A stretch of DNA of 64,000 nt from Callorhinchus milii. Lineage: Eukaryota. A model generated the notes under the pieces. That model had not been told where the DNA came from, did not search any database, and saw only the letters and a program-made list of their open reading frames with translations. This document shows, piece by piece, positions 21,535-62,900 of this stretch. The stretch is from NCBI RefSeq assembly GCF_018977255.1, contig NW_024704755.1, forward strand, positions 186,001 to 250,000. The letters run 5' to 3'. Positions within the stretch are counted from its first letter, which is position 1. The number at the start of each line of letters is the position of its first letter. Made by a program: the position numbers and the translations under genes.

Positions 21535-21614
21535 ATTCACACTCATCGGGTCTGGTTCTTATCAAACATGTCGGGATTTTATGAAAGAGTCCAACCGGGC
21601 GGCACCTGACTCAG

Positions 21615-33807: not shown

Positions 33808-36800
33808 ATGGGCACCCCGGCAGCCTCCAGCCCTGCACATCAACGCCTCCACCTGCTCGGCAGTGACTCCGCCTGTGTGGCCCCAAACACCAGAGCAATG
33901 CCAGAGAGGCTGGAGCCGGATCGGAGCAGTGATAGCACAGGCAGTGAGAGCGAGAGTGAGCTAGGTGACTACCCCACTCTCCCGAGCCAGGATAACGGCA
34001 CCTCCTCAGATGAATCCTTCTCTTCCCACCAGAGCAGTGAGTTGCTGGAGACGGCCGAGCGCAGGGAGTTCATGCGTAAATATGTGGAGAAGATCTTCAG
34101 TGGAGGGTAAGAGGTGGGAGGGAGGGGCCTGGGGTGTGTAGCCTTTGTCGGGCAATGGTTTCTTGCTGAATGTCTCAGCCAGTAATGCTGCTTCCTCCAT
34201 CCTGATATTCAGGGAAGCAATAAACCAGGAGGAGAAGGCTCGGTTTGGGGTGCTGTGCTCCGAGCACAGTCCTGAAGGCAGAGAGTGGTTTGCGAAACAT
34301 GTCAGTGCGCAGGTGAGTAGGTATGAGTAGCACAGGTGAGCGTTTGCGAAGTGGGGAGGGGGCAGTGGGCACAGTGAGCTCCGCCCTGTGCAGGGGGAGC
34401 TGTGAACCACACCAAGTTCCTGCCACTGGGGGATGATGTGTTGGCAGTGCTGTCCCCTAGTGGCCAATCCTGATACTGCAGCACCAGGCTGCTCCATCCA
34501 AAATCAAATTGCACCCACAAACCGCTCCCGCTTGTGTACATGTGATTGTGTGAGGTGAGGCTTACACAACACGCGAGATGGTTGGGTGCTGCCGTGTGTT
34601 TAGAATTTAGCAACAATTTGACTTGAAGTTGGTAACATTAGGAGGTGTGTGCGTGCGTGTGCGTGTGTGTGCGTGTGTGTGAAGCTGCTGGGTTGTGACG
34701 ACATATCTCTAGCGCTGTGCATGCCATGCAGTAACACAATCTGATCTCTCTGCAGCGGTGTAATTCTAAATGTGTGTCTGAGCACACCTTCTACAGGCTT
34801 GTCCAGTCCTTTGCTGTAGTCCTGTTTGAGTGAGTATTGGTTTTGCTTTCTGAGTTAATTTGGGCTCTTGACTTTTATGGGTGGAGCCGAGGGGATGGAG
34901 CGAGGGGAGGAGCGAAGGGGGAAGTGGAGTGAGGAGGGGGGAGCTAGGGAGGAGCAGGGTGGAGTGAGGTGGGGAAGTGGAGTGAGGAGAGGGTGTGGAT
35001 AGGGGCGGGAGCGAGGGAAGGGGCAGGAGCGAGGGAGGTGGGGGAAAGGGGGTGAGTGCAAGGGAGGGGAGGGGGAGCAGGAAAAACGATCCTCAATCAG
35101 GAGAGGGGAGAGAGAGAGACGATGATGTGTGTGTGATCACCTCTTGTTCCAGGTGTTTCCAGATGGATGATTACAGCCCGGCCAAGAACCTGATGACCAT
35201 GTGTTTCACTTTCTATCACGTGGGTAAGTGCCACTTCACAATTAGTCAACATCACTTCAGTCTATCTCATCTCATCCCTCCAGAATAGAGGGGAGCAGAG
35301 AGGAGGAGTAGCGAACGAGCAGCTCCAGGGACAAATTCCAGCTTCATTACAGCAAATCCTGTTCATTGCCCTGAAGCCAGAGACTCCACTCCGTTCTCTG
35401 TGTGGAAGCTCCTTGTGACAATACCGTCCTCCGGTGGCATATAAAAGTACTGCAGTGTTCATCCCTCCAGTTGTATTCAGTATCTCCGCAGGATTCCCTA
35501 CTTGCTGGGTCGCCCTCTGCTTGCACCACAAATCCCTCTTTATTTTCCTGCCGTTGCAGCCAAGCCTTGTGTGAGCGTCACTGACTTGAGAGAGAAACCC
35601 GCTGCACCCATCGACTCCTACCTGAGAACCGCCAACAGCTGGCTGGCAGGCAAGCGAGACCTCGCGGACAAGCTGCTGAGGAACAAGGAAAACGTCAAGG
35701 CCATCTTCGGGGGGCGGGAGACCAGGCTGAAGCAACCACAAGCCAATAGCGGGTGGGTATTGGCTGGCCTCATCCGGACCCCGAGGGTAATCGGGGCTGG
35801 TTGGTGGAACCCAGGAGAGAGTAGCAGAATGGGGGAAAAGTGGACATTTTGTGGACCAACCACTACCTTGTGTTACTCTGTGTTTCAGGAGCGCTGAGCC
35901 CCAAGCCCGGAAACGATCACGGAAAACAGGTACGTGATTCCTGACTGACCATCTGCCTCCTGGTCAGTATTAGTCACTCAGTGCCGCTGTGTCAGACCAG
36001 CGCTATTCACCTGACACCAAGGTGAGCTGTCTGACTTGTATTTTGCTGATGGAACATGTTTCTGATTGTCCTCAGTGAAACTGGGCTGTGGAGAGGAGCA
36101 GAAAGGAGAGAAAGTCTACTTGTACACACATCTGAAAACACAGCCTATCTGGTAGGCCTTCACATTGTGACATTCACTCATTGTCACGTAGAAGCAGCCG
36201 GAAGCTGCTGGATGAATGTGCAGTGTGTGTGGCCTGAACCCGCTTCCTCCCCCCTGCCTCCCCCCGGGAGCTCCCCCACGCTGTGATCAATGACATGGTG
36301 GTTGGCTGGAGAGGGGGGAAACAACACTTACTGTGTTTATAGGTGGGGGTGGTTTCGAGGCACGGTGCAACTCACAGTGACTGACTGTTATCTCTCTGCT
36401 CTTGCTGGCAGGCATACGCTCCGTTTCTGGAATGCTGCCTTCTTTGATGCTGTCCATTGTGAACGGAGGAAGCGATCGCCCACCACAAGGTACAGATTGG
36501 GGGGAGGGGGTTGTGAGGGAGGGACTATGGGAGGGAAACTCTGCAGCAGCCCGTGTACTCTTGCGCACCGGGCTCCGCGACTCCCACCCTCGCCCGACTC
36601 CACTGGCTCCCAATCCCCCAGAGGATCAAGTTCTAGATCCTTGTCCTCACTTTCAAGTCCATCCATGGCCTTGCCCACTCCGACTTCTAAGACCTGCTGA
36701 CTCCCTACCAACCTACCCGCTCCCTCCGTTCAGCGGGCTCCGGCCTGCTCCATGTCTCCTGCCCGACCCACCCTACCATCGGTGACCGGGCTTTCAGCCT

Positions 36801-38743
36801 CTCTGCCCCCACACTCTGGAACTCCATCCCACGGTCCCTTTGCCTCACTTCCTCCCTCGCCTCATTCAAGGCCGGTCTCAAGATCCTTCTCTTCGATCAT
36901 GCCTTTGGTCTCCCTCCCACCTCTCTGCCTTCCCTCATCCCAGGGAAGGACTGGGGGAGGGGGTTTGAGGGCGAGAGGGGGCAGAAGTCCGCAGGTGCAG
37001 GTTGACATGAGGATACCCAGTGACATTGACGGGTGTTTCAGATTACAATCAGTCACTGTGAGGCTGCCACTATCAGCAACTCCATCCTTTGTGTGAGATG
37101 TTAAACTGAGCTCCTGTTTGTGCAGGCGGACATTAAAGATTCACAGTGCTGTTGGAAAAGACTTACTCTCTCTTGCTGTCCCCAAATCGTATCCCAAGTA
37201 CAACTGGTCATTTACTTTGTGGCTGTGTGTGGGACATTGCTGTGTGTAAAATAGCTGCTGTGTTAGACTACAAAACACACAGTCACTATATCCTGTGCTG
37301 GCCCCTCCCCACCCTGTGCTGGCCCATCCCTTGGCACCATGTGCTGACTCTTCCTCCTGGCACCCCGTGTTGGCTAACACATTACACTTGTATTGACAGG
37401 GAGCGATGGAGCCACATGACGGCTGAGGAACGAGACGACAGCCTCCGGTTCAACGAGAATATTGCGTTTGGGCAACTTGGGTAAGAGCAGGCGGGGGCAG
37501 GGGGAGCAGACGGGGGCAGGGGGAGCAGGCGGGGACATGAAGGGGGAGCAGGCGGGGGCAGGAAGGGGGAGCAGGCGGGAGCAGGCGGGGGCAGGAAGGG
37601 GGAGCAGGCGGGGCAGGAAGGGGGAGCAGGCGGGGACAGGGAGGGGATCAGGCGGGGGAAGGAAGGGGGAGCAGGCGGGGGAATGAAAGGAGCAGGCGGG
37701 GGAAGGAAGGAGGAGCAGGCGGGGGAAGGAAGGGGAGCAGGCGGGGGAAGGAAGGAGAAGCAGGCGGGGGAAGGAAGGAGAAGCAGGCGGGGGAAGGAAG
37801 GGGGAGCAGGCGGGGGAAGGAAGGGGGAGCAGGCAGGGGCAGGGGGAGCAGGCGGTGGGAGGGGACACCTTCCACATAACATCTCAAAGTTACGGGGAGG
37901 GAGTGTGGTCATAGGCTCAGGCCAAGTGCCAGGTTTTAAGGTGGGATTTAAAGCCTGATCGGGGGTGATCCCGAGTTAGCTGAGGAGCCGGGTAGGAGAG
38001 CAGAGAGATGGGGAGGTGTTCGGATCTAGATATCGATTGGGTGGAGCCTACTGAGCACTGGAGTTGGTGTGGAGTCAATGTGGAGTGGAGGCGAGGGAGG
38101 AAAAATGGTGCCAAGGTCATGTGTACGACATGATTCCCTCCATGTCCGGCAGCACCTTCACACACAACATGTTGGCCTTTGGACTGAGCCAGAAGCTGTG
38201 CAATGACTTCCTGAAGAAACAAGCAGTGATCGGCAACCTGAACGAAGGTCAGACTGGTGCTGCAGGGGAGTGGGTACTGTTTAACCCGCGCTGCCACTGA
38301 GCTGGGAGTGTGGTTGTACAGTGTAGAAGGAGCTTTACTGTGTCTCTAACCCTGACCTGGGAGTGTGGACGGACGCACAGTGTAGAGGGAGCTTTACTGT
38401 GTCTCTAGCCCAGACCTGGGAGTGTGGACTCACAATGTAGAGGGAGCTTCACTGTGTCTGTAACCCTGACCTGGGAGTGTGGACGCACAGTGTAGAGGGA
38501 GCTTTACTGTGTCTCTAACCTTGACCTGGGAGTGTGGACGCACAGTGTAGAGGGAGCTTTACTGTGTCTCTAACCCTGACCTGGGAGTATGGATACACAG
38601 TGTACAGGGAGCTTTACTACGTCTCTAACTTGGGAGGAGGGATTGGCCTGTTGTTTGTGTTCTCTATTCACCTCCTTACTGACTTCCCAACAGAACAATA
38701 CCAGCTTCTGTGCAACAACATCCAACAAATGGCCGTGGAATAA
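33808..38743 (+). CDS. KIAA0513: KIAA0513 protein (SBF2-like C-terminal domain)
   Basis: Exons 33808-34106, 34213-34312, 34756-34829, 35153-35223, 35560-35752, 35889-35929, 36076-36151, 36412-36489, 37400-37480, 38153-38247, 38694-38743. Peptides [80 protein letters not shown] and [11 protein letters not shown] match recalled human KIAA0513. Confidence 0.96.
36535..36925 (+). mobile_element. L2 3' fragment
   Basis: [19 protein letters not shown]-type motifs across frameshifts. Confidence 0.75.
37487..37858. repeat. Purine-rich minisatellite (GAGCAGGCGGGGGAAGGAAGGG)n
   Basis: Directly visible, starting just after a splice donor. Confidence 0.9.
38300..38635 (+). repeat. 55-bp minisatellite, about 6 copies (ACAGTGTAGAGGGAGCTTTACTGTGTCTCTAACCCTGACCTGGGAGTGTGGACGC)
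   Basis: Directly visible, in the last intron of KIAA0513. Confidence 0.92.
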
Positions 38744-39852: not shown

Positions 39853-42800
39853 TCACCAGGTGCCGGTTGTCAGCAGCACCCTGGCCGCCGCTCGGCGTTC
39901 CTGGCATCGGGAGCGTCTGACGTGCAAAGGTAACTGGCTGCAGAATGGGAAATATTCGTAATCGCTGGGGTCCGAGTGGGACGATTCCTCGCTGGAGGCT
40001 GAGGTCTGGTTGCTGGAGCCGAGCACTGAGCTGCTGTCTGCCTGGCTAGATAGCACTTCCATTGCCTTGGGAGCAGCGCTGTGTGAGGCTCTACTTGCCT
40101 GCCTCACACCACTGGCATCAGTCAGGCCCAGGGTCAGTCTAGCCACCACAACCTTTGGCTGGAAAGTGGGAGAATTCAACAGCTGCTTCTGAACCTGAGG
40201 AGAGAGCGGGGCACCGAGCAGAGAGGCCAGATCCCAGTCGTGCCCCCCGGACACCCCCCGCCCCTGGTGTACCGGCGACCCATCCAATACCCCATCCACA
40301 ATCCACAGAGCCGGAGGCTGGCTGTGCCGGGTGTTGCAGACAGGCAGGGCAGAGTGTGGACCTGCAGGTGATTCACTCCTGGATTCAGTGTCCACAGTTC
40401 GGTGACACGAAGCCTGAGAGAGGAACGGATCTGGAGGTGACAGGATCGCCAGGACTGAGGTTTCCTCCGGAGAATAGTCAAAATGAAGAGCAGAAAAGGC
40501 AGGATGGTTTCCTGTGGTGGCTGCGCTCGCCAGGCAGTCACTGTGGACACTGACCGACGTTTGCCACTGTGTCCCGGTGTCGCCGGCCGGTGCCTGTTCC
40601 TCCCCACGAGTCAAACCCATCTCAACGTAGGTATGAGCACCAGAAACTGTCTGGACTGCGGCGTGGCTCCTGGTGTCCCTGTTGCTCCAGGATCCAGCTA
40701 CAAAAGTCACATTTAAATACTCTGTGCACAATCTACACCATTGAGCTCAACCAGGATATAACCACCCCGGGGTCATCTGTAGTCCTGGGTTAGAGACACA
40801 GTAAAGCTCCCTCTACACTGTGTGTCCACACTCCCAGGTCAGGGTTACAGACACAGTAAAGCTCCCCCTCCACTGTGTGTCCACACTCCCAGGTCAGGGT
40901 TACAGACACAGTAAAACTCCCTCTACACTGTGCGTCTGTCCACACTCCCAGGTCAGGGTTAGAGACACAGTAAAGCTCCCTCTACACTGTGTGTCCACAC
41001 TCCCAGGTCAGAGTTAGAAACACAGTAAAGCTCCTCTACACTGTGTGTCCACACTCCTAGGTCAGGGTTACAGACACAGTAAAGCTCCCCCTCCACTGTG
41101 TGTCCACACTCCCAGGTCAGGGTTACAGACACAGTAAAACTCCCTCTACACTGTGCGTCCGTCCACACTCCCAGGTCAGGGTTAGATACACAGTAAAGCT
41201 CCCTCTACTGTCAAACAATGTGATTTTAACATGGGGGGAGGCAATAGTAGAAGTTTTTGCACTCACTGCTCAGGTCTTGTTGGTGCTGATTCCGGATCCT
41301 CTCAATCAGGGCCAGGAGGATATGGGGAATGTCGGAGTGATGATTCAGGATGGACACAAGGGCTTGTTCCTCTGGTGGCAGCCGGGCCACATCCACTGTG
41401 CAGGCCAGCAGCTGTTAACATCAGCACATCAGTCATAGTGGTGGGGGGGTGGGGGGCGAGAGCAAATGCTGGGAGGGGAGGGAAGGGCAGGGGGAATGCC
41501 AGAGTCTGGACTGAGCGAGTGCCAGGTTTGGATGTGTGAGTGAGTGCTGGGCGGGGTGGGGGAGTGCCGTAGGGGGTAAGTTTTACCTGATCTATCCTGG
41601 GTTGTGGCAACGCTCTCTCCAGTCTCTCCAGATATTCCCACAGCAGTTTCTGAGCTGCTGCCGTGAACGGTGCCCCGTACTCCTCCATCTCATCCTGTGG
41701 CAATAGCAACACTTCATTTACACCTAGAGTGAGAGCTCTCTAATCCCATTCCTTGCTCTCTCTCTACCCATCGTGTCTGTGTTTGTGCTTGCTCCCCCAC
41801 TGGAGCTCTCTACTCTAATCCCATTCCTTGCTTTCTCTCTCCGCATCATGTCTGTGCTGGTGCTCACTCCCCCGTTGGAGCTCTCTACTCTAATCCCATT
41901 CCTCGCTCGCTCTCTCTCCCCATCGTGTCTGTGCTGGTGCTTGCTCCCCCACTGGAGCTCTCTAACCCATTGCCCTGAGGGTACACTCTGTACAGGGGCA
42001 ATGATGGCTGTGCCACCCTCTCCTGCCTCAGGCTCACCTCCAGAAACTGCTTGCGATATTGGTCATCCCGGATCAGCAACAAAACCAATTTACGAAACTG
42101 CTCGTGGCACTGCCGGACTTTGTGCCGATCTCGCCTTGACTGTCAAAAAGCAAAGCAGACGTGGACAGTCAGAGTGAGACTGATGACAGGCTGAAGTGAC
42201 ACACACTTTACCTCACACTGGGAGGACTCAAAGCGCTTCACACTGTTTACTGAGAAGTCCACTGACTATATATATTGAAGATGAGGCGCGGCAGCCAACT
42301 TGCACTCACCAACATTCCACCAACAGCCATGGAGTGACTGACCAATTTTATTGTGTGATTGTTGGCCAGGACACCAGGAGAGAGAAACCTTTCTCTTTTT
42401 GAATTGAGACGTGGGATCTTTAATATCTTTAACAGCTGAATGGGCAGACCAGGGCCTCCGTCAGTCTGACGTCTGATCCAAAGACGGCCTTTCCAGCACC
42501 TCCAAAGCACTGCACTGAACTGTCAGCCTGAACTGTGTGAGCTCAACGTCCTAATGTAGAGGATTGTTACCGATCGCCTTCTGTCTCAGGGGAATGTATA
42601 CATTAAGGGAAATAAAGATATGACAAATTTTAGAGATTTGGGGAGAGGGGAGACCAGGTCACAACCAGACCAGTGGCTTGTATGCGGAGACTAGACTAAC
42701 GCTCAGGTGGGTGGGTGATGATCCCCCAGCCATGCAGTGACGACAAATCTTAAGCTAACACATAGTGGATCTGCCACTTCCCATTCACAACAATTGAACA

Positions 42801-45800
42801 TTTACACCAGTGTCAGCTACGTACCGCTTTCCGGTCGTTGGGAAGCTTCTTTGGGAAGTGGTTGTCTAGTGACTGAAGGATGTCCAGCAGACAGTGTCTC
42901 CGCACAAACATCTCCAGCAGCAACTGTATGGAATGGAAGCCGTGAGATTCCCTCTGATCTGACAGCAGTCAGCACTGGCCCAACAACAATTATATTACAG
43001 CAACTTGCACTTATATAGAGCCCTCCACCCAGCGTAGTGTCTCAGAGCGCTTATTTTTATAGCGCCTTTCATGTCAGGAGGACGTCCCAAGGCCCAGTGC
43101 CAAAGGGGTAAACTTTGCTGCCGAGGGCACCGTGCTTTATAATAATAATCCTTGCATTTGATGTAGCACCTTATCACTTCTTCGAGACGTCACAAAGCGC
43201 TTCACAGGATATAATGTAAAGTGAATTGATGGTGGATTTTGTGGGAGAAACAAAACAGCCAATTGCGCACAGAGGTATCGCACAAACAGTTGTGGATTAA
43301 GCTTTGTGTTAAAAGAACCTTAAATGGAAACGAGTGTGATAGAAGCTGTACCTTTGCTCTGAAAGCGAGGCAGACCTTGACGTGGTGACGATAACCGATC
43401 AGATATGGGACCTGCCGCCGCACTGTCTCCACAAAGTCCAGCACCCTGTGCGAATGGTCTGCCGATTGGTGGGTCACACTGCTCCACAATGCTGTGCTGC
43501 CCAGGCGAAGGGGCAACACCCCGTCCTGAGGGAGCTGAGCCCCGAATCCCACCAGGCAAACTACAAGATGCGTCCAAAAGCGTCATTGCATGTCCCAAGC
43601 GTTAGTCACCCTCACAAACTGTGCAGACGCACGTACCACTAAATAAATAGCTTGTGCTGCGCATCACTATCACAATCTCTCCAGGTGGATGAGCCAGGGC
43701 ATTGGTTATGACGGCACCGGCCAGCCTGGCTCATGGCAGCACTTGTAAGGGCAGACCAGTCACTGGGGCAGGGAATCCTCCCACTCAGCTCCTGTTAACC
43801 CTCCAAGCCAAAGCCCTAAAGGGTAGAGCGGTCCTAGCTGGACAAGCAACAATAAAATTACATTTGTAAAGCGCCTTTCATATCTGGAGGATGTCCCAAT
43901 GCACTGAGCAGTTAGGGAGCAGGACCCAAGCATGGGGGGAGGTGGGGGGGCAAGGTTGGGATGAGGGAGGGCAGAAGGGGTAGGAGGGTGGCTGAAGGCC
44001 CTCCTCAAAAAGGAGGGTCTTGAGTCGTTCCTTGAATGAGGCAAGAGAGGGAGCAAGGTGAAGGTATTGTGGGATTGAGTTCCGAAGAGTGGGGGTAGAG
44101 AGGCTGAAAGGCTGATGTGGGAGAGGACACAAGCTGTAGCTCAATGGTTAGAGCACTCGCTTTGCAAGTGAGAGACCTGAGTTCAATCCCGGCAGAGGGC
44201 GAAACCTTGGGCAAGTTTCCTTACTCCACACAGAGCCTAATAATAATCCTCCAAACCCAAAAACAATAATAAATTGGTCATTTTCAATCTACGACTGTTT
44301 GTGGGACATTGCTGTGCGCAATTGGCTGCCGCGTTCGCCCACAAATATACAGTCAATTCACTTTACAGTGTGTTCTGTGAAGCGCTTTGGGACGTCCTCC
44401 CGACGTGAAAAGCGCTATATCAAATGCAAGGATTATTAAACTGCAGAGTTCTGGATAATCTGCAGATTGTGGAGGGAATAGTTGTGGAGGCCGACAAGGA
44501 GGGAGTTTCCGTAATCGAGCCTTGAGGTGACGAATGCGTGTATCAAGGTTTTGGCGGTCTGAGGGGTGAGACAGTGGTGGAGTCGAGCAATGTTGCAGGG
44601 GAGGGGGGAGATGGCAGAGTGGGTCATGGCATGGATATGGGGGAGAAAGAACAGTTGACAAGACTCCTAGCTAAGCGGGAAAGCTTGCCAGAGAGTAATA
44701 TCCATGGCAAGCTAAGTGGTTTAAGCTAGTTAGACTCCAACAGTTGCACATTCTCAGGTACAGAGTTACCTGGCGACAGGTGACCAACGTACCTGCTCTG
44801 ACATCATTGAACACAGATTACATTTGTAAAGGAGGAAGGAAGGGAAACCCTGACTTTTGCAGTGACTGACCAACTGAACTTTTTTTCTTCCCCTTTTCTC
44901 TTCACCTTCTCTCTTCCTCTCTGTTTCAGAAAATGTGTCGGTGCATTTTGTTTTAATGCGATGCGAACAGTATTTTTTCTCTTTGTTTCTTTCTTTTCTT
45001 AAAGAAATCTGAACTCTTTTGCTGTGCCTTTTGTTGCAAAGGCGAATGGCAGCGTTGAGGTCAATGTCTGTAGACCATTTTCTGGCTCTGTGTATGTGTT
45101 GGTGGGGGGGGGGCGGGGAGGGGGTGGTGTTGAGTTGTGTTTGTGCATGAAAAAGAGGATTTTTTAAGATTTTTAATTTCCCTTCCCCCACCCTTGGGTC
45201 TTTCCTCATCCCCCTCCTTGCAAACTGTGTCATTTTCAGTGTTGCTAAGAGTTCATAAGAAAAAAATATCCTGGGTTTTCAGATTCAGGCTTTCGTTTAC
45301 ATATGTAAACATTGCTGTTTATAATAATAATCCTTGCTTTTGATATAGCGCTTTTCACGTCTTCTCGACATCTCAAAGTGCTTCACAGAATATACTGTAA
45401 AGTGAATTGACTGTATATTTGGGGGCGAAACGCGGCAGCCAATTGAACACAACAGCATTGCACAAACAGTCGTGCATTGAAGTGATCAATTTATTATTGT
45501 TTTTTTTCTTGAGGGATTATTATCAGACGTGTGGAGTCAGGAAACTTGCCCAAGGTTTCGCCCCGGCCGAGAATCAAACCCAAGCCTCTCGCTTGCGAGG
45601 CGAGTGCTCTAACCACTGAGCTACAGGACTCCACTGTTTCACTGATACAGGCTCTCCCCCCCCCCCACCATACACTGATACAGGCTCTCCCCCCACCACA
45701 CACTGATACAGGCTCTCCCCCCCCCCCCACCACACACTGACACAGGCTCTCCCCCCCCCCCCCACCACACACTGACACAGGCTCTCCCCCCCCACACACA

Positions 45801-46417
45801 CACACTGACACAGGCTCTCCCCCCCCCCACCACACACTGACACAGGCTCTCCCCCCCCCCCCCCCACCATACACTGACACAGGCTCCCCCCCCCCACCAC
45901 ACACTGACACAGGCTCTCCCCCCCACACACTGACACAGGCTCCCCACACACACACACTGACACAGGCTCCCCACCCCCCCCCCACACACACACACTGACA
46001 CAGGCTCTCCCCCCCCCCCACCACACACTGACACAGGCTCTCCCCCCCCCCCCACCACACACTGACACAGGCTCCCCCCCCCCCCCACCACACACTGACA
46101 CAGGCTCTCCCCCCCCCCACACACACACACTGACACAGGCTCTCCCCCCCCCCCCACCATACACTGACACAGGCTCTCCCCCCCCCACCACACACTGACA
46201 CAGGCTCCCCCCACACCACACACTGACACAGGCTCTCCCCCCCACCACACACTGACACAGGCTCTCCCCCCCCCCACACTAGTGGTCACACGCTGTCCCC
46301 GCAGCACTGACCTCTCACAGCCTCCTCCAGGCGATGTCGGCCGCAGTAATCCAGAATCCAGCTTTTCAACTCTGGGATTTTCAGACATTCGCTAACAGCG
46401 AACTCCGGGAATTCCAT
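39853..46417 (-). CDS. TINF2 (TIN2) N-terminal-domain protein, TINF2-like, about 537 aa if the predicted first exon is correct
   Basis: Minus-strand exons 46312-46417 (tentative; MEFPEF..EEAVR), 43352-43560 (LRLGSTALWSSV..RVLDFVETVRRQVPYLIGYRHHVKVCLAFRAK), 42825-42923 (LLLEMFV..LQSLDNHFP), 42038-42139 (SRRDRHKVRQCHEQFRKLV), 41587-41694 (EEYGAPFTAAAQKLLWEYLERLERALPQP), 41267-41411 and 39853-40697. Aligns with recalled human TIN2 ([54 protein letters not shown]). All phases are compatible with no internal stops. Confidence 0.88.
40785..41210 (-). repeat. Same 55-bp minisatellite, about 8 copies, opposite orientation
   Basis: Reverse complement of the 38300-38635 unit, in the last intron of the TINF2-like gene. 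Confidence 0.92.
41730..41975. repeat. ~75-bp tandem repeat, about 3 copies
   Basis: GAGCTCTCTACTCTAATCCCATTCCT..CATCGTGTCTGTG..CTCCCCCACTG recurs. Confidence 0.85.
42225..42590 (-). mobile_element. Old SacSINE1-like SINE
   Basis: GGCCAGGACACCAGGAGAGA..GGGATCTTTAA..CCAAAGACGGC..TGTCAGCCT, the reverse of the old SINE body. Confidence 0.6.
43846..44660 (-). mobile_element. L2 3' part with nested SINE
   Basis: LIHAFVTSRLDYGNSLLVGL..LQIIQNSA; TLRNSIP..FKERLKTLLF; tail. Confidence 0.88.
44134..44438 (+). mobile_element. Young DeuSINE nested in L2
   Basis: Same SINE consensus. Confidence 0.92.
44995..45100 (-). mobile_element. Possible hAT transposase C-terminal remnant
   Basis: Minus frame HIHR..DIDLNAAIRLCNKRHSKRVQI resembles the end of hAT dimerisation domains; short, judged by eye only. 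Confidence 0.35.
45321..45632 (-). mobile_element. Full-length DeuSINE variant, minus strand
   Basis: Reverse complement of the SINE head (GCTACAGGACTCC) and tail. Confidence 0.88.
45640..46280 (+). repeat. Minisatellite (CACACTGACACAGGCTCTCn), about 20 copies; left arm of an inverted pair
   Basis: Directly visible. Confidence 0.95.
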
Positions 46418-46467
46418 TCCTTTCACTACACGAGAATAGATCTCTCCCTGTGTCTCACCCTCTCCCT

Positions 46468-47476
46468 GGGTGGGGGGAGCCTGTGTCAGTGTGTGTGGGG
46501 GGGGGGGCCTGTGTCAGTGTGTGTGTGTGTGGGGGGGGGGTGGGGAGCCTGTGTCAGTGTGTGTGTGGGGGGGGATTGTGTCAGTGTGTGTGTGTGTGTG
46601 TGGGGGGGGGGTGGGGAGCCTGTGTCAGTGTGTGTGTGGGGTGGGGGGAGCCTGTGTCAGTGTGTGTGTGGGGGGGGGAGCCTGTGTCAGTGTGTGTGTG
46701 TGGGGGGGTGGGGAGCCTGTGTCAGTGTGTGTGTGGGGGGGGNNNNNNNNNNNNNNNNNNNNNNNNNNNNNNNNNNNNNNNNNNNNNNNNNNNNNNNNNN
46801 NNNNNNNNNNNNNNNNNNNNNNNNNNNNNNNNNNNNNNNNNNNNNNNNNNNNNNNNNNNNNNNNNNNNNNNNNNNNNNNNNNNNNNNNTGTGGGGGGGGG
46901 GGGAGCCTGTGTCAGTGTGTGTGGGGGGGGGGGTGGGGAGCCTGTGTCAGTGTGTGTGTGGGGGGGGGGTGGGGAGCCTGTGTCAGTGTGTGTGTGTGTG
47001 TGGGGGGGGGGGTGGGGAGCCTGTGTCAGTGTGTGTGTGTGGNNNNNNNNNNNNNNNNNNNNNNNNNNNNNNNNNNNNNNNNNNNNNNNNNNNNNNNNNN
47101 NNNNNNNNNNNNNNNNNNNNNNNNNNNNNNNNNNNNNNNNNNNNNNNNNNNNNNNNNNNNNNNNNNNNNNNNNNNNNNNNNNNNNNNNNNNNNNNNNNNN
47201 NNNNNNNNNNNNNNNNNNNNNNNNNNNNNNNNNNNNNNNNNNNNNNNNNNNNNNNNNNNNNNNNNNNNNNNNNNNNNNNNNNNNNNNNNNNNNNNNNNNN
47301 NNNNNNNNNNNNNNNNNNNNNNNNNNNNNNNNNNNNTGTGTGGGGGGTGGGGGAGCCTGTGTCAGTGTGTGTGTGGGGTGGGGAGCCTGTGTCAGTGTGT
47401 GTGTGGGGGGGGGGGGGAGCCTGTGTCAGTGTGTGCGTGTGTGTGTGGGGGGGGGGGGGGGGGGGAGTCAGTCAGA
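46468..47476 (-). repeat. Same minisatellite inverted (GnAGCCTGTGTCAGTGTG); right arm, contains two N gaps
   Basis: Directly visible; gaps at 46743-46888 and 47043-47336. Confidence 0.9.
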
Positions 47477-47520
47477 CAAGTCGCTACATGTTCTGAGCCT
47501 ATTACAGGGCAATGTCGAGC

Positions 47521-47650
47521 AGCCAATCAGATGGCAGTGTGGCTAACCAATCAGAAATCCAGACTCGCGCAGCCAATCAGCGGTCAGGTGTGACCCGACT
47601 GTCCAATCAGAGCGTGTGCCCAGAGCGAGGCTTCACCAACATGGCGGCCG
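47521..47650. promoter_or_regulatory. CCAAT-box cluster with YY1-like motif; probable bidirectional promoter for FAAP24 and the TINF2-like gene
   Basis: Four CCAATCAG copies near 47523, 47547, 47573 and 47603; AACATGGCGGC at 47638-47648. Confidence 0.75.
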
Positions 47651-47857
47651 GGGCTCAGCGAAGCCTTTGTCAATGCAACAGTTACTGACAATTGTCTGAG
47701 TCTCTGCAGCCAATCACTGGCGCCCACTGCCCCACTGGCGCCCACTGCCGCCCACTGCCCCACTGGCGCCCACTGCCCCACTGGTGCCCACTGCCCCACT
47801 GGGAAGGCTGTGGCCTCCCTTCCGGTCAAGCTTTCCTTTCCCTGAGCACAGAGCACA

Positions 47858-50569: not shown

Positions 50570-51250
50570 GCTCAGCCCCAGCCTCCAGTCCTGCTGTATC
50601 TCCCGGGGGCTGTGGATGGGGAACACGCTGTGTGGAAGATGCTGGAGAAAGAATATCAAATCACAGGGCACCGGATTGGGGTAAAGTTCAGCCTTGGCAA
50701 AGTCATTTTCACTTTATTTCAATCTCATTTCCTTGATGACATACATACACAAGCTTCATATTTTTACACACCTTCATTTACCAACAGGAGCCGTTTGAGA
50801 CACCCTCGTTTCTGGTCTGGTGCTGCCGGGAGCCGGGGCCGCACTAGGCGTCCTGGGCACTTATCAGTATTTACATGTCAATCAGTGTGACCAAATCATC
50901 TGCGACTCGCTTAACAACTGAGACGGGAATAAACTGTACAATAACCTTCCTTGTTACCCAACGTCCTGCGTCACACTCACAAACACACCCTGAACCAAAG
51001 TTACTTTATAAAAAAAAAGTCACAGAATCTCAGTAATATTCACAGTCACATTGCCTCTGATTATTGGTGTGTTGCGAGCATAAACAGTCTTTCTGTGGGT
51101 GGGGGTGAGTCAGGCAGGGAATCCGCTCACTCACTGACTGGTCAGACTCAGACCATTGTCCTGAGGATGGCGTCGGGGGTCCACAGCACGGACATGTCTC
51201 CATCATGTGGCCTGACGCACAACATGCTACCGTCATGGGAGGTGAACCCC

Positions 51251-54200: not shown

Positions 54201-57009
54201 TGCACTTCCCAGGTGTGGAGCAGAGTGACAGACAATGAGGGAGGGGGGTGTTGGTGCCCTCCTCACCCATCACCAGCACAGTCTCCCTGGTGCCAGTGGA
54301 AACATCTAGACCTTGTGTGAGCCGGGCCCCGCAATGCGGTGACTGACCTGCGGCGCGCTGGAAGGCGAGGATGGCAGTGTCCAGGCCTGACATGGAGCTC
54401 CGGTCACTGCGGGCACCGAGTTGTGTGTGCAGTGCTGCAATGTTAAACAATATGCTGGCCTTCTCCAGCCCCACGTGCTGCTGGCACACGGGCACGCCAG
54501 TGAAACAGTCATACCTGCCAGGCAAGCACAGCATGATGTGAATAAAGCCATAACCCACACAGACACACACGCATGCAGACATATGCAAGCATGTAGACAC
54601 ACTCAAATGCACGCACACACACATACCCCTGGCACAGACACCCTGGTGCACAGACACACACGCAGACACCCTGGTGCACAGACACACACGCAGACACCCT
54701 GGTGCACAGACACACACGCAGACACAGACATCCTGGTGCACAGACACCCTAGTGCACAGACACACAGACATTCTGGTGCATAGACATGCGTGTAGGCTGT
54801 TACCAGGTGAAGAAGATGCCCAGGTGACGGCTGGGGGGGAAGAGCCGGTTCTCCAGTAAGTTGAGCTGATTGTAATAGGAGATGAGCAGCTGCACCCCAG
54901 CCTCATCCCTGCTCGGGGTGCGGGTAGCCTGTGCCAGAGAGACAGAGGTCAGCCCTCCACCCCAGAGCCACCATCCAGCCCCCCAAGCCCCACGGCTTCC
55001 AGCCCCCCAGACAAGAGCCCCCATCGCCCTCCCCCAGAGCCCTGCAGCAGTCCCCCTCCACCAAGGCCACTCACCTGCCGCAGGTCCATCACATCCAGGA
55101 TACTGTCTTCATATGCAGATGGCTCCTCACTGTAATGTTCCTGAATAAAATCCTGGAGACGAGGATCCATGTCAGTGTTAGTATCAGTGTCACACTGCAG
55201 CCAGAGGCTGGGGCAGGGGATGGGAGTAAAGTGATTTAAATTCATATAGACTTACTTTGAAAGGGGTCATGAAATCCACCTCCCGAGTCTCCTTCAGGCC
55301 CAATGGGATGAATGGGATTGTCAGCATCTCCCTGTAACACAGACACCCAGTGCCAGACATCAGCATCAGTGCACACGCACACAAAATCACACACACACAC
55401 GGGCACACAGTGAATTGACTACATTTTGTGAGGAAAACGTGGCAGCCAGCAGTGTCCCACAAACAGTCATGGATTTTTTTAAGGGATTATTATCCCCGGA
55501 AAAGCAATCTGCCAATTGACTAATAACCAGCTTTCTACTTACTGCTGGGTAAACAGAGGCATGGGGAGCAAGAAAACTTGCCCAATATTTCGTCCTGCCC
55601 GGGAATTAAATCTAGGTCCTCTCGCTTGCGAGGCGAGCGCGCTAACCAATACACTACGGGACTCCACGATGGTGGAAACTCACTCCTGGTTCTGATAAAC
55701 TTCAACGGAGCTGTTCAGCCCCTCCAGCTCCTCCTTCAGCAGCTGCAGGTCAGAGTTGACGTAGCTCAGCTCCACCAGCGCCAGGTCCCGCACCTTGGCG
55801 TTGTCCGTTGCTCTGGAGACACGCAGATCACAGGTCACACAGGTTCCAGCTCAGATCAGGATTCTCCCCATCACAAAGCTCAGCATTTTGTTGCCCCCAC
55901 CCGTTCTCCTCCACTTATTGTGGGCTGGAATCCATTCCCCCCTCATCGTATCCTCCCCATTTTGATCCCCCCGTGGGCTGGCTGGTATGCAGGGAATGTA
56001 TTGCTCTCGCTGCACCAGTAAAACCTGCTGCACAGCTTCCCCGCGAGTGAGCACGTCACTAGGCACAAGGTCACACTGACGTCAGTCTGTTCTTGCCTCA
56101 CTATCTCTCCATCTCTGTAACCTCCACCTGTGGTCCCAACTCCAAGTCCCCAGCACCCAGCCCCTCTGCAGCACCTCAGCCCCCGCAGCCCCTCCCCATG
56201 CAGACTCACCGCAGCAGGTTCTCGGCACCCGCTCGCAGCCTCACGGCTTTGATGATTTGCTGGTTCAGAGTCACTCGTTTACTCTGGAGTTTGCTGCGTC
56301 CAGTCTGAGCGCACGGATTACAGCCCTGGAACACACAACAGTGTCAGCCCATGCACTTTCCCCTACCCGGCACAGTTAGTGAGTGGTGCCCAGGGCTTGG
56401 CACAGGTAGTGAGCAGGTGAACCACAGCGCGGGTGAAGCTGCCCCACCCTCCTAGAGAGAGACTGGAATTTTGACCTCCCCCATGTTACCAGGCGGTAAC
56501 TGTCACATTACGTTTATTTACAGAGCAATTAAACACAATCTTTGCATTTGATACCAGCGCCTTATCCCATCGTTGAGACGTCTCAAAGTGCTTCACAGAA
56601 TATACTGTAAATTGGAGTGACTGTGTATTTTGTGGGTGAAACAGTGAAAGATTGTGTGCACAATTGCTCAGCGCAGAGCGGTAGCTTGTGACAGTGACAC
56701 ACTCACAGTGACACATTCAGAGATACAGTGACATACTCAGTGTGACACACTCACAAATACAGTGACACACTCAGACACAATGACACACTCAGTGTGACAC
56801 TTAGTCAGTGACACACACACACAGTGACACACATAGACACACTGACACAGTGACACACTTAGACACACACAGTGACACACTTAGACACACTGACACACAG
56901 TGACACACTTAGACACAGTGACACACTCAGTGTGACACACTCACACTCACAGACGCACCTTTCGGAAGTAGCTGTCGCTGCGGCCCGCGGGTTGGATGGT
57001 GTCGGTCAT
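51251..57009 (-). CDS. RHPN2: Rhophilin-2 (HR1, BRO1 and PDZ domains)
   Basis: 15 minus-strand exons: 56959-57009, 56210-56325, 55684-55812, 55256-55331, 55075-55152, 54804-54928, 54348-54514, 53886-54073, 53431-53587, 53225-53323, 52477-52659, 52326-52402, 52083-52229, 51815-51973, 51251-51466. [37 protein letters not shown] and KKLSFLSWG match recalled RHPN2; the FAAP24/GPATCH1 neighbours agree. Confidence 0.96.
52803..53205. repeat. C-rich minisatellite (CCCATGGCYCCACTCCCC..CACCAGCCCC)
   Basis: Directly visible, in an RHPN2 intron. Confidence 0.9.
54630..54790. repeat. (CAGACACCCTGGTGCACAGACACACACG)n repeat
   Basis: Directly visible. Confidence 0.85.
56690..56950. repeat. (CAGTGACACACT)n-type repeat in RHPN2 intron 1
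   Basis: Directly visible. Confidence 0.85.
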
Positions 57010-57989
57010 CGCGGCGCCGGGAATCGGGTAAAAAGGACGAAAAGCGCCGCCCGGACACGGGAGCCCAGATCCGGCTCTGCTCCCCCTCAAGCCCTCCTCC
57101 CGGGGTCTGGCCGACCGCTGCCCCACTCTTGGGGTGTGTGTGTAAGACAGTGCCAGACAGTGTGTGTGTGTGAGAGAGAGAGAGTGTCAGACTCCCCGTG
57201 TGGGTCTCTCTCTCTGTCTGTGTGGGTCTCAGGTGTTCTCAACCCTTCACCTGTGTGAGCGCCGCACCTGCCCAGGCCCCGCCTCCTGCACGTAACTCAA
57301 TGTGTGTCGGCCCCACCCCCAGTGCACATCTCATCATCAATCATTCACCACAAATATTCTCCCCACCCGCTTACCCCCACCCCTGGCCACGAGGGGTAGA
57401 GGGCAAACAGCACCCGGACTGAGCTCACACGGTCAGACCACGCGAGTTGGGGGGTAGTGTTCTCTTATGTTTTTATTTCCCTGGTTACCTAATGGCAAGG
57501 AATAGTAGACGCAGGTTGGGAAGAGTCCAGGCTTGGGGACCCCAGAGTGTGTGTTGGTGTATTACTGGAGCTTAACCAGCTAAAACCATATCGCTTGCCA
57601 TTGAAATCACTGTCAATGGGGACTACCCTGTCCATAAGGGTTTTGGCTTGCAGGGTTAGCAACAGTAACTTGCATTTATTTAGCACCCGGAGCACCTAAC
57701 AGGAGCTGAGTAGGAGGATTACCTGGCCCCAGTGATTGGTATTCCTTTCCAGGTCCTGCCAATGAGCCAGGCTGGCTCTACTGTCATCAGCAGTGCCCTG
57801 GAATACGGGTTCAGAAACTGAGACCATCACAGAGGGTTGGCTCGATTCTGACATTCTGTTGCAAACATGTCAACTTGGAGCCAGTTCATCCCCGAGGTGA
57901 CTTCACTGCCCCAGGATGCCATGACGATTGGTGGGAGGACGGTTGACAGGGTTGTGGAATGATGAGATACAATGAGATGGCCCACTCCA

Positions 57990-59122
57990 GTAGGTGGTGT
58001 CTTACTCTCCCACTGTCTCCACTTTGTCGCCACTGGAGGCTTCTCCTCCAGCCCCCATATCGTCACATGTGGTGTCCCTCAGGGCTCTGTCCTTGGTCCT
58101 CTCCTTTTCAATATCTATATGCTTCCCCCTTGGTGACATCGTCCGCAGACATGGGATCAACTTGCACATGTGTGGATGACACTTAACTCTACATCTTTGC
58201 CTCCACTCTTGATTCCAGGACCACTGCTGTCCTCACAGACTGCCTGACAGACATCAAGTCCTGGATGAGAGCTAACTTCCTGCAGTTGAATGTCAACAAG
58301 ACCAAGGACCTCCTGCTTGGCTCCTGTCAACGCCACCATACCTTAGGAGTTGACAGCGTCTCCCTCCATGGATGCACACTGCATCTCACAGAGCCAATAC
58401 AGAACCTCAGCATCCTGTTCGAACCTCAATTATCCTTCATACCCTACATCCATGCCATGACCCACTCCGCCTTTCCCCACTTCTGCAACATTGCTCAACT
58501 CCACCACTGTCTCACATTGTAGGCCACCAATCTACACATTCATAACATCCAGGTTCAACAACGCAAACTTCCAGCTTCTTGGCCTCCCCAACTGCTCCCT
58601 CCATAGGCTGCAAATCATCCAGAACTCTGCAGCCTGTGTCCTCTCCCGCACCAGGCTCCGCGACCCTATCACCCACATCCTAACCCGACTCCACATCACA
58701 CAGAGGATTCAGTTCAAGATCTTGGTCATCATTTTCAAAGCCCTCCATGGCCTTGCTCCCCCCTACGTCTGCGACCTCCTAACCCCCTATCCACCTGCCT
58801 GCTCCCTCTGTTCAGTGGATTCCGGCCTCCTTCATGTCCCCCGCCTCCCCTGTCCCACCATTGGTGGGCCTTTAGCCACTCTGCCCCCCCCTCTGGAATT
58901 CCATCCTGCAGTCCCCCTGGCTCGGCCCCTCTCTTGCCTCCTTCAAATCTTGTCTCAAGACCCTCCTCTTCGACCGTGCCTTTGGTTAATCTCCTCCTCC
59001 CCTACCCTCCACCCAACCCCGATCCCACCCCCAGCTCGGGTCCCAAACTCTGATTGTCCAGCGCCTTGGGACGTCCTCCCGTCGTGAAAGGCGCTTTACA
59101 CATGTAATTTTGTTGTTGTTGT
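57990..59122 (+). mobile_element. L2 LINE, RT and C-terminal part, degenerate
   Basis: VDDT, MRANFLQLNVNKT, LQIIQNSAACVL, RIQFKILVIIFKALHGLAP; (GTT)n tail. Confidence 0.92.
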
Positions 59123-59140
59123 CAGGAATTTTGTGATTCT

Positions 59141-59468
59141 GGAGTCCTGTAGCTCAGTGGTTAGAGCACTCGCTTTGCAAGTGAGAGACCTGAGTTCAAT
59201 TCCAGGCAGAGGGCGAAACCTTGGGCAAGTTTCCTTACTCCACACAGAGCCTAATAATAATCCTCCAAAACCAATAAAAACAATAATAAATTGGTCATTT
59301 TCAATCTACGACTGTTTGTGGGACATTGCTGTGCACAATTGGCTGCCGCGTTCGCCCACAAATATACAGTCAATTCACTTTACAGTGTGTTCTGTGAAGC
59401 GCTTTGGGACGTCCTCCCGACGTGAAAAGCGCTATATCAAATGCAAGGATTATTATTATTATATTATT
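59141..59468 (+). mobile_element. Full-length young DeuSINE
   Basis: Same SINE consensus. Confidence 0.92.
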
Positions 59469-59520
59469 CTGCAACAAACGGGCAGTGAATATTGACTGAG
59501 GTTGTGAATGTGCAGAGAAG

Positions 59521-59968
59521 CAGCGCCCTCTGGCGGGGACGCGGGGAGCAGCGCCCTCTGGCGGGGACGCGGGGAGCAGCGCCCTCTGGCGGGGACGCGG
59601 GGAGCAGCGCCCTCTGGCGGGGACGCGGGGAGCAGCGCCCTCTGGCGGGGACTCGGGGAGCAGCGCCCTCTGGCGGGGACGCGGGGAGCAGCGCCCTCTG
59701 GCGGGGACTCGGGGAGCAGCGCCCTCTGGCGGGGACGCGGGGAGCAGCGCCCTCTGGCGGGGACTCGGGGAGCAGCGCCCTCTGGCGGGGACGCGGGGAG
59801 CAGCGCCCTCTGGCGGGGACGCGGGGAGCAGCGCCCTCTGGCGGGGACGCGGGGAGCAGCGCCCTCTGGCGGGGACGCGGGGAGCAGCGCCCTCTGGCGG
59901 GGACGCGGGGAGCAGCGCCCTCTGGCGGGGACGCGGGGAGCAGCGCCCTCTGGCGGGGACGCGGGGAG
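59521..59968. repeat. 16 x 28-bp tandem array (CAGCGCCCTCTGGCGGGGACGCGGGGAG), each unit with a CTCF-type motif
   Basis: Units start every 28 bp from 59521 to 59941; the only variation is G>T in units 5, 7 and 9. Confidence 0.97.
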
Positions 59969-59990
59969 CAGAGGCCACGGTAGACCAACA

Positions 59991-62900
59991 ATGGCGGCTC
60001 TGGACGCGGACAGTGAGGAGGAGGCGGGGGAATGGCCGCTTTGCGGGACTCCGCTGGAGCCGCTGCCAGAAGGTGGGTCACCCCGGGCCTGGGAGCCGGG
60101 CCGCCGCCTCGGAATCACGCGGGAGCCGCTCCAACTCCTGGCTCCAGGCCTCAGCCCCGCGCTTTCCCGGGGCCCGACCCCAGGCAGAAGGTCCCCGAGG
60201 CCGCGGCGCGGAGTGAGAGACTGTGGGGTGTAGTGACTGTGACTGTGTCCAGAACAGCTCCACCGGGACCTGACCCTGAACTCCGCGCCTCCATCAGCCG
60301 AGTCCTCGCCGCCTCCACCGGATCCTCTCCCGGTCCACACGCGCTCTGACACCTCTCTCTCTGACCTCCTCACTCCCCAAACCCACCGCCGCCGCCTGTG
60401 CGGCCCTCGGGCCCTCCAATCCACCATTGGTGGCCACACTTTCAGCCACTGCGCCCCAACACTCTGCAACGCTCTCCCTCAGTCCCTCCGCCTCACCCCC
60501 TCCTTCCCCCATCTTCAGGTCATAGCTCTTTGACCTATGGACACCTTCTCCGGTTCGGTACCAAACTGCTGTTCGCTCCGAGGTTCTCCCCTCCGGTGAC
60601 GGGCGCTGTGTAAATGTCGGTCAATGTTGGTTGAGTGTCGCGGTGACTGTGACTGTCCGGTGACCACAGTGATGGTCTGTATTGTGTCGGCAGACGCTGT
60701 GGACAGGAAGAAGCCGCTGCAGGAGCAGACGGTGAGAGACGAACGTGGGCGTTACCAGCGTTTCCACGGAGCCTTCACCGGAGGCTTCTCTGCCGGTTAT
60801 TTCAACTCCGTGGGCTCCCGAGAAGGTGAGGAATGCCAGAGGCCGGAGTCCTGCAGCTCAGTGGTTAGAGCACTCGCTTTGCGAGTGAGAGACCTGAGTT
60901 CAAGCCCAGGCAGAGGGCGAAACCTCGGGCAAGTTTCCTTACTCCACACAGAGCCTAATAATAATCCCTCCAAAACCAAAAACAATAATAAATTGGTCAT
61001 TCTCAATCTACGACTGTTTGTGGGACATTGCTGTGCGCAATTGGCTGCCGCGTTCGCCCACAAATATACAGTCAATTCACTTTACAGTGTGTTCTGTGAA
61101 GCGCTTTGGGACGTCCTCCCGACGTGAAAAGCGCTATATCAAATGCAAGGATTATTATTATTATTATTATCTGTTAATTACCGTGAACACGCGGTGCAGC
61201 GCGGTGCCGGTGAGGTTGGGCGGTGACTGTACACGTTATCTTTAGGTTGGACGCCGGCAACCTTTGTGTCATCACGGCAACAGAAAGCTGAGACTCAGCA
61301 ATACCGGCCGGAAGATTTCATGGACGAAGAGGTGAAAAAATCTGATCCTCAGTGAGAGCTTGTGGTGGCCCCCACTCCCCCTGGTCCCGCTCCGACTCCC
61401 CCGGCCCCGCTCCGACTCCCCCGGCCCCACCCTGACTCCCGGCCCCACCCTGCCCCGTGCTGACTGCGTTGTGTTTTGAAGGATTTGAACGAACATGGAA
61501 TTGCACCAACACGGATCAGCACCAGGGAGAGCTTCGCCTCCAAGTCCACTGACAAAATCCGGGACAAGGCGCGAGCGTTGGCTGCGGTGACAGCACCAAT
61601 CCCGGAAGCCACCATCCTGGACGATTTGATATCCCCGGCAAAGTGAGTGTGTTCCCGGGGCTCAGACAGCCTGCTTGCTAGGGGCCAGGCAGTGGGGAAA
61701 GCCGGGAGTGGTCTCTATGTTACATTGGGTCACAAGGCATCAATTTATAACATGGTCAGAATGCAGGAGGAGGACGATAATGATGGGTCAAAAAATCAAT
61801 AACAACTTGCACTTATATAGCGCCCTCCACGCAGAGCAGCGTCTCAGAGCTTTCCAGAGGGGGAGCCTGACTCTGTGCTGGGGGGGGGGAGGTGGCCGTA
61901 AGCACGGTCGAAGAGGAAGGTTTTCAGGCGGCACTTAAAAAAGGAGAGAGAGGGGGCAAGGCGGAGGAGGTTGGAGAGGTTGGGAGGTGCCAGGGAGTGA
62001 AGGGATTTGAACACGACTGTGATGGTGGTGGTTGTTGGCAAACGTAGAGTGACAGTAATTGTAAGTGTTTTACAGGGAGACCCTGGGGGTGCAGTTACTA
62101 CGCAGAATGGGCTGGAAAGAAGGTCAGGGGCTCGGGCCACGGGTGGGGAGGAAACGACATCAACGTCAAAAACTCGGTGAGGAATGCCCCCTCCGCATAA
62201 TCTCCCCCCCCGCACCATCCCCCCCTCCGCACCATCCCCCCCTCCGCACCATCTCTCCCCCCGCACCATCCCCCCTCCGCACCATCCCCCCGCCCCGCAC
62301 CATCTCCCCCCCCGCACCATCTCCCCCCCGCACCATCTCCCCCCCCGCACCATCTCCCCCACCGCACCATCCCCCCGCCCCGCACCATCTCCCCCCCCGC
62401 ACCATCTCCCCGCCACACCATTCCCCCCGCCGCACCATCTCCCCCCCCCCCCCACACCATCTCCCCCACCCCCTGCACCCCACCCCGCACCATCTCCCCC
62501 TCCCGCACCATCTCCCCCACACCCCACTCTGCCCGCGCACACACATCCCAGCATCTCCCTCCCACCTCCACACACAGATGCACTGGGAGTTAGGCCGGGC
62601 CTTTTGCTAACCTGCTATTTCTCCGCGGCAGGTGCTATTGTGGAGATTTACGGCTGTGCGTTGCCGGCCACCGGCTCAGATGGGTCCCAGGTGAGTTCCG
62701 GGCGTGTCTGCTGCCTTCCCCACTTGCTCGTAGCATCCTGACATCCGGCGGGCTGTGTGCCTGGGATCGGGATTGGGATTTGAATGTGCTCCTGCTCACA
62801 GTGTCCTGAGCTGATTCAATCTCTCACGCTCTCACCTTCTGGTCAAAGATTGTGGGTCCAAAGCCCCAGCTTAGGGCCTTGAGCTGCAGGCCTGGCTGAC

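Follow-up and report, generated by a model that had tools for sequence, protein, structure and literature searches.

A 28-bp minisatellite of co-oriented CTCF-type motifs at the start of GPATCH1 in Callorhinchus milii

Results and Discussion

Genes and repeats around the GPATCH1 start

The window, by which we mean the whole 64,000-bp (64-kb) stretch of Callorhinchus milii DNA that was analyzed, contains the start of GPATCH1 on the plus strand. GPATCH1 was identified by DUF1604 and G-patch matches and by solved chains. Coding exon 1 (59991-60072, plus strand) ends in a GT donor and is in phase with exon 2 (60694), the exon 1-2 junction being the splice junction that was checked. The conserved block starts at residue 34, versus residue 32 in solved chain 9s2f_GP, and this agreement together with the phase of exon 1 makes the ATG at 59991 the likely GPATCH1 start. 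A search with exon 1 alone returned no solved structure. RHPN2 was identified on the minus strand by HR1 and BRO1 matches and by a rhophilin-2 chain, and its start region (56950-57350, minus strand; ATG at 57010-57008) is CpG rich in its own right (observed/expected, 0.70). Elsewhere in the window, FAAP24 was identified by PND matches and solved chains. The FAAP24 exon reached 55 to 61% to named mammals, coelacanth, and sardine, and among named relatives of a ZC3H18 exon, the bamboo shark Chiloscyllium punctatum ranked first (83%).

The DNA between the RHPN2 and GPATCH1 starts includes a dispersed repeat (57480-57901), a LINE fragment (58112-59122, plus strand) that is 63% alike to 14812-15700, and a young tRNA-Ala-headed SINE (59140-59467, plus strand), whose 7 other near-full-length copies in the window share 94 to 98% identity with it. 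The LINE copy at 14812-15700 contains a frame that matches Pfam RVT_1 with an E value of 1.8e-5, below the family cutoff. After the SINE come 51 bp of unique DNA (59468-59518), a tandem array of a 28-bp unit (59519-59971), and further CpG-island DNA (59972-60400; G+C, 70%; observed/expected, 0.76). A second copy of the same SINE is found in GPATCH1 intron 2 (60845-61170, plus strand), such that the GPATCH1 start is bracketed by two SINE copies. A first-pass annotation of this DNA had placed the array between divergent RHPN2 and GPATCH1 genes. The divergent arrangement is correct, but 2,508 bp lie between the array and the RHPN2 ATG, including the LINE fragment and the SINE.

Upstream of GPATCH1, no TATA element was found and CCAAT occurred solely inside the SINE. 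The DNA before the GPATCH1 ATG also contained no pyrimidine-rich splice acceptor, in that no AG was accompanied by a pyrimidine tract (at most 9/19). Because only 51 bp of unique DNA separates it from the young SINE, the array is probably most of the GPATCH1 promoter. The upstream sequence suggests that GPATCH1 transcription starts in or beside the array; if transcription started to the left, the array would be 5′ untranslated region and not promoter. Transposons aside, most of the DNA upstream of GPATCH1 would be the array, which would have added 450 bp to the CpG island.

An upstream ATG at 59508 is in frame with GPATCH1 through the whole array (59508-59990, plus strand) and would add 161 codons. 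The same ATG would also be in frame if one unit only were present. The frame is set by copy number modulo 3, and gene predictors could call from this ATG a false, repeat-containing GPATCH1 N terminus. A coding role for the array was rejected on the poor context of the ATG (T at −3 and +4). When the 189-amino-acid frame from this ATG was searched, none of the 8,000 candidates scored reached an E value of ≤1e-5.

Array anatomy and fit to the CTCF core

Tandem Repeats Finder (TRF) reported the array at 59519-59971 with a period of 28, 16.2 copies, 98% matches, and 0 indels. Its 453 bp comprise 16 full units plus 5 bp, arranged head to tail, and head-to-tail repetition of units of 10 to 100 bp is what defines a minisatellite. 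The end had earlier been put at 59968, which is indeed 22 nt before the ATG, but the array runs on to 59971, 19 nt before it. The array, for which the sequence represents one haplotype, has a G+C content of 81% and 61 CpGs (observed/expected, 0.85). Thirteen of the 16 units share one sequence; units 5, 7, and 9 (59631-59770, plus strand) alternate with common units and carry one common G>T at unit position 23 (59653, 59709, and 59765), which is spacer position −5 and the sole variable column of the array. A 5-bp direct repeat, AGCAG, stands at both ends: the left copy (59519-59523, plus strand) falls at +14 to +18 in minus-strand core numbering, and the right copy (59967-59971, plus strand) falls at −15 to −11 relative to the last site.

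Each of the 16 units carries a CTCF-type core on the minus strand, repeated in exact 28-bp steps (first at 59521 and last at 59941). Taken as 15-bp cores, the sites extend over 59522-59956, from 59522-59536 to 59942-59956, and their 3′ ends point to lower coordinates, that is, to the left. The variable column lies outside the core, and every unit has 4 CpGs (3 in the variant units) and two GGGG runs. In each of these respects, namely, sixteen co-oriented motifs in a 28-bp repeat, variants only outside the core, and 3 to 4 CpGs with two GGGG runs per unit, the first-pass annotation was accurate.

Fit to the core was scored against three consensus strings: that of the first-pass annotation, that of 10.1101/637298, and that of PMC12885311. 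The unit had 0 mismatches to the first, which was equaled by 10 of 40,001 shuffles of the unit; 1 mismatch to the second, over 11 specified bases (shuffles as good, 652/40,001); and 3 mismatches to the third (1,070/40,001). The published strings were thus fitted equally well by 1.6 to 2.7% of unit shuffles. The array unit matches the core of fingers 3 to 7, and the earlier claim of a close fit to the CTCF core holds both for its own consensus and for that of 10.1101/637298. Across the 64-kb window, 19 matches with ≤1 mismatch to the first-pass consensus were found where shuffles expect 1.7, a comparison that is inflated by the array repeat itself, such that the fair evidence is that of one unit. 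The exact matches in the 64 kb are the 16 of the array, and 1 mismatch was found at three solitary sites (18511, 26598, and 34450). We conclude that the core motif is probably not a chance match.

Lamprey, chicken, and human have a near-identical CTCF motif, as stated in the available text of PMC5504073, and the accessible part of PMC10115646 describes an orientation-coded CTCF system in skate, with boundaries that have inward-pointing motifs. By analogy, the host lineage is expected to have the CTCF machinery. Clustered sites of the 2xCTS type have at least two motifs per peak; the array has 16 motifs in 453 bp, a likeness at the sequence level only.

Other identities for the repeat were considered. 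A G-quadruplex minisatellite had little in its favor, as there were 0 four-run matches with loops of ≤12 nt and the mean G4Hunter score was 0.88. Scores of ≥1.2 occurred in 9% of 25-nt windows of the array versus 11% (either strand) across the whole window, and a long-loop (16-nt) quadruplex pattern fitted 8 times in the array. A special hairpin was rejected because the array folded worse than its shuffles, both as RNA (z = +7.7; 100/100 shuffles as good) and as DNA (z = +2.8; 200/200 shuffles as good). An Rfam search of 56900-61300 for structured RNA returned only two SINE tRNA heads and two sub-threshold SINE-tail matches. Finally, a dispersed element was rejected, as the unit did not recur significantly elsewhere in the window (closest match outside the array, 15/16 bases at 18524-18539; E = 0.17).

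The 1-mismatch site at 18511-18539 is a single intergenic CTCF-type site on the minus strand, with the same direction as the array. It is overlapped by a weaker motif-like stretch on the opposite strand.

Origin of the array

TRF gave 118 rows in the window, which merged into 41 arrays covering 8,433 of the 64,000 bases (13%). The consensus is present in 1 of the 41 arrays, while the other 40 have at least 3 mismatches, and the GPATCH1 array is the CpG-richest. Given the 5-bp repeat at its two ends, its single variable column, and the presence of 41 tandem arrays in the window, we infer that the array is one motif amplified and not the product of 16 independent site origins. The ancestor would be a single promoter-proximal CTCF site 35 to 50 bp upstream of the GPATCH1 ATG. 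Two 5-bp direct repeats, spaced by 28 bp, would have allowed slippage or unequal exchange to duplicate this site; AGCAG at both ends would be the signature of that event, and the right-hand copy its putative slippage seed. Expansion to 16 copies would have proceeded partly by two-unit steps, and the alternation of units 5, 7, and 9 may trace such 56-bp duplications. The expansion itself was most likely neutral or merely tolerated. The first-pass annotation had pointed out the invariance of the core. With only one variable column, however, core invariance is no sign of selection, as the chance that this column falls outside a 16-nt core is 12/28.

The number of units could in part be a product of the assembly, with a collapsed or expanded repeat standing for a real allele of another length. 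The window has two N gaps (146 and 294 bases), both located amid minisatellites at 46.7 to 47.3 kb, which indicates that this assembly struggles with such arrays. The three variant units nevertheless form an ordered pattern between clean unique flanks, and a 1.4-kb array elsewhere was assembled gap free. We consider an assembly product very improbable, and it would alter the number 16 and not the existence of the array.

Site spacing and the CTCF footprint

In the numbering given in the available text of PMC10484683, fingers 7 to 3 occupy positions 1 to 15, fingers 2 and 1 occupy positions 16 to 21, finger 8 runs over about 8 bp of minor groove, and fingers 9 to 11 lie at about −9 to −18. The variant base, at −5, is under finger 8. 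The full eleven-finger footprint, from −18 to +21, is 39 bp versus a period of 28 bp, and thus at most 8 units could be bound with fingers 9 to 11 engaged. Fingers 9 to 11 of one CTCF would overlie positions 11 to 20 of the neighboring site, whereas fingers 1 to 8 (29 bp) would just abut across all 16 sites. At 10.5 bp per turn, each site is turned by 240 degrees relative to its neighbor, and eight full turns are completed every three units. Like the sites of boundary clusters, those of the array are co-oriented (16/16 minus), but they lack the boundary-cluster spacing that would give each site a full footprint and its own flanks.

The gene-proximal site has a partial upstream (U) motif, the target of fingers 9 to 11, at the usual spacing (59965-59974, minus strand), and in the other 15 sites the corresponding stretch overlaps the core tail of the neighbor. 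Positions −18 to −9 matched the PMC12885311 upstream consensus at 7/10 (chance, 0.011 at this composition) and the IL3 motif at 5/10 (chance, 0.15), and the upstream stretch matched the measured optimum in 10.1101/637298 at 3 to 4 of 9 (chance, 0.42 for 4), matches that are suggestive only because three strings were tried. Among the key bases of the fingers 9 to 11 motif, which spans −17 to −9, C at −10 is present, T at −12 is absent, and G at −16 is present in 15/16 sites. An upstream motif was required for insulation at IL3 (PMC12885311).

The distance from the CTCF upstream motif to the core tail is likewise 28 bp, matching the period, and the bracketing 5-mer sits at both places, with one copy in the core tail (+14 to +18) and the other at the upstream-motif position (−15 to −11). 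From this double position, one could read the site as having seeded its own repetition: a CTG-containing word common to the U motif and the core tail, 28 bp apart, would have slipped into a 28-bp minisatellite in which each core tail is the U motif of the next site. The result would be the densest possible CTCF polymer, passing between 16 core-bound and 8 fully bound molecules and forming a copy-number-tuned barrier at the GPATCH1 promoter. We rate this chain of steps as quite unlikely. Were it general, CTCF-motif minisatellites across vertebrate genomes should peak at periods of 28 to 29 bp, and on a genome-wide scale it would add a transposon-free route to CTCF clusters.

Methylation and the likelihood of binding

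CpGs occupy core positions 2-3 and 12-13 in 16/16 sites. Methylation at core position 2 blocks CTCF binding and at positions 12-13 does not, according to the available text of PMC10484683, and the CpG at position 2 bears out the earlier description of the sites as methylation sensitive. In the eight SINE copies, transitions were found at 14 of 192 CpG bases versus 25 of 2,356 other bases, an approximately sevenfold faster decay of CpGs which indicates that the transposons of the window are germline methylated. The array has 0 transitions at its 61 CpGs, a count that does not tell youth from hypomethylation because the array holds one mutation event.

These observations bear on whether the array is simply an inert GC-rich minisatellite, in which the motif is either a chance match or unbound because it is methylated or crowded, while the exon 1 island drives GPATCH1. 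Tandem arrays are common in the window, unit shuffles can fit the published strings equally well, the blocking CpG is found in every site with a methylated SINE family 51 bp away, and the CpG island continues beyond the array; all are consistent with inertness. Against it stand the rarity of an exact match to the stricter consensus, the position of the array at a gene start, and the lack of CpG transitions. In addition, housekeeping CpG islands are usually unmethylated. We regard an inert repeat as unlikely.

Predicted consequences at the promoter

We modestly favor a reading in which the array is a young, tolerated slippage expansion of a promoter CTCF site that is bound if unmethylated and that provides open chromatin and a one-sided local barrier near saturation. 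An unmethylated array would bind several CTCF molecules, up to 16 with fingers 1 to 8 abutting and at most 8 with fingers 9 to 11 engaged. A bound array would keep the promoter open beside the SINE and the LINE, and it would present a one-sided, left-facing block to cohesin with a strength near its plateau. By the convention that relates motif orientation to the cohesin block, as given in PMC12885311, a block at the array would face RHPN2 and FAAP24. The first-pass annotation described the array as facing RHPN2; the motifs do point left, but a special tie to RHPN2, which has its own CpG-rich start, is weak.

A direct activator role would be atypical because the motif is opposite to GPATCH1. 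In mouse CTCF-dependent promoters, the motif is about 60 bp upstream, and 90% of the clear cases have it running the same way as transcription, as reported in the accessible part of 10.1101/095802. Here, the motif is on the minus strand and GPATCH1 on the plus strand. For RHPN2, the direction fits that pattern and the distance is 2.5 kb.

The first-pass annotation went further and proposed a directional super-anchor, facing RHPN2 and scaled by copy number, that shapes a domain boundary. Sixteen co-oriented cores pointing left would suit such an anchor, as would skate boundaries with inward-pointing motifs (PMC10115646, available text) and the partial upstream motif (7/10 against one consensus), given the need for such a motif at IL3. 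Insulation also rose with site number in a reporter, according to the available text of 10.1101/2020.07.07.192526, and in a neural-network model with 180-bp spacing described in the accessible part of PMC11828424. The same portion of 10.1101/2020.07.07.192526, however, reports that each site after the second added less and that CTCF was bound by tandem arrays of 6 or 15 non-boundary sites which nevertheless failed to insulate, owing to the importance of the flanks. The sites whose flanks mattered were 139 bp long, whereas the 28-bp unit has 13 bp of flank. The upstream stretch is also poor against the measured optimum and is without T at −12, and the best candidate convergent partners in the window are the 1-mismatch site at 26598 and 2-mismatch plus-strand sites at 39853, 44189, and 47524.

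A toy lattice model was run at 18 settings with assumed occupancies of 0.2 to 0.8 and assumed stalling of 0.2 to 1.0. With 16 units, the chance of stalling was at least 0.91 in 11 of the 18 settings and 0.39 to 0.81 in the other 7. In the model, 16 units clearly exceed one site, which counts in favor of the anchor, and there is often little room for an effect of copy number, which tells against the earlier suggestion that strength varies with it. The period of 28 bp versus a 39-bp footprint, together with the tandem arrays that did not insulate and the diminishing gains in the available text of 10.1101/2020.07.07.192526, weighs against the super-anchor. We think a copy-number-tuned super-anchor improbable.

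Another reading is that the array is a clustered CTCF/CTCFL (BORIS) promoter element, acting mainly in the male germline, that sets or shifts the GPATCH1 start. Sharks retain a testis-biased CTCFL (PMC7471279, available text), the repeat class chiefly enriched for CTCF plus BORIS in K562 cells was that of short tandem repeats with staggered motifs (171 repeats; PMC5007689, available text), and BORIS converts clustered sites into start sites (PMC10832218, available text). The binding evidence is all mammalian, however, and as a separate account we hold this element to be rather improbable, although it is compatible with the favored slippage expansion of a promoter CTCF site.

Comparison with known CTCF repeats

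Tandem repeats that multiply a CTCF motif are a known class, and the GPATCH1 array resembles them at the level of its letters. A literature search that was short on subscription papers found no account of either the GPATCH1 locus or any 28-bp CTCF unit, and no precedent for a CTCF variable-number tandem repeat (VNTR) was found in the accessible part of PMC8282625. Like the array, the CTCF/BORIS-bound VNTRs of K562 cells, as described in the available text of PMC5007689, have a short GC-rich unit with one CTCF-type signature and form a clustered site; binding was measured there, whereas it is predicted for the array, which is found in a cartilaginous fish, at the start of a protein-coding gene. 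Co-oriented CTCF motifs are also multiplied in tandem in DXZ4, FIRRE, ICCE, and the 1q23.3 tRNA repeat, and in the gamma satellite (10.64898/2026.07.18.739380), as far as the accessible text of the sources goes. The units of these macrosatellites and satellites, about 215 bp to 7.3 kb, accommodate full footprints and nucleosomes, unlike a 28-bp unit in a total of 453 bp, and for some that are CTCF bound, cross-species conservation of the motif is reported in the same texts.

Boundary clusters and synthetic tandem insulators likewise have several sites in one orientation, but in the available text of 10.1101/2020.07.07.192526 and PMC11828424 they were tested at spacings of 139 to 180 bp or more with native flanks, compared with 28 bp here. 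Promoter-proximal CTCF sites, in the accessible parts of 10.1101/095802 and 10.1101/2020.03.21.001693, resemble the array in lying tens of bases from a gene start at a CpG-island edge. The CTCF-dependent promoters in the available text of 10.1101/095802 showed no enrichment of tandem sites, whereas the array has 16 copies in the opposite orientation. The human subtelomeric 29-bp CpG-rich repeat of TERRA promoters, in the available text of PMC6600276, is also a promoter made from units of about 29 bp with sites for a methylation-sensitive factor. That factor is NRF1, however, and, unlike in the array, CTCF has its site outside the repeat, at a distance of about 300 bp.

The array is a natural test piece in which identical, strong-looking sites are packed more densely than one full CTCF footprint at a tiny promoter. 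It could show how many CTCF molecules can be accommodated, whether insulation follows from site number when flanks are absent, and whether repeat length affects expression.

Other features of the window

The window begins with the 3′ end of ZC3H18, within a plus-strand region (1-38300) that also has exons at 20645-21628 and 33991-38269. We take these to belong to an IL17C-type gene and to KIAA0513, respectively; a Pfam search with three exons gave no match. A gene with a TINF2_N domain (40100-46470, minus strand; Pfam E = 8.9e-8) lies head to head with FAAP24, and its 5′ part is broken up by minisatellites and the two assembly gaps. The FAAP24 start region (47473-47660, plus strand) has four CCAAT boxes, at 47523, 47547, 47573, and 47603, the first of which overlaps a 2-mismatch plus-strand CTCF-like site. 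The start codon context of FAAP24 fits the TISU short-leader element. FAAP24 and RHPN2, both very compact genes, are arranged tail to tail with about 0.6 kb between their stop regions (50570-51140).

The eight near-full-length tRNA-Ala SINEs begin at 3966, 9926, 16412, 19002, 30330, 44134, 59140, and 60845 and are all on the plus strand; an older minus-strand copy is at 45321-45633. ARAGORN called five of the SINE heads as tRNA genes. Arrays of one 55-bp unit occur in opposite orientations at 38297-38629 and 40787-41208, and we assume the unit to be a repeat that is widespread in shark and ray genomes.
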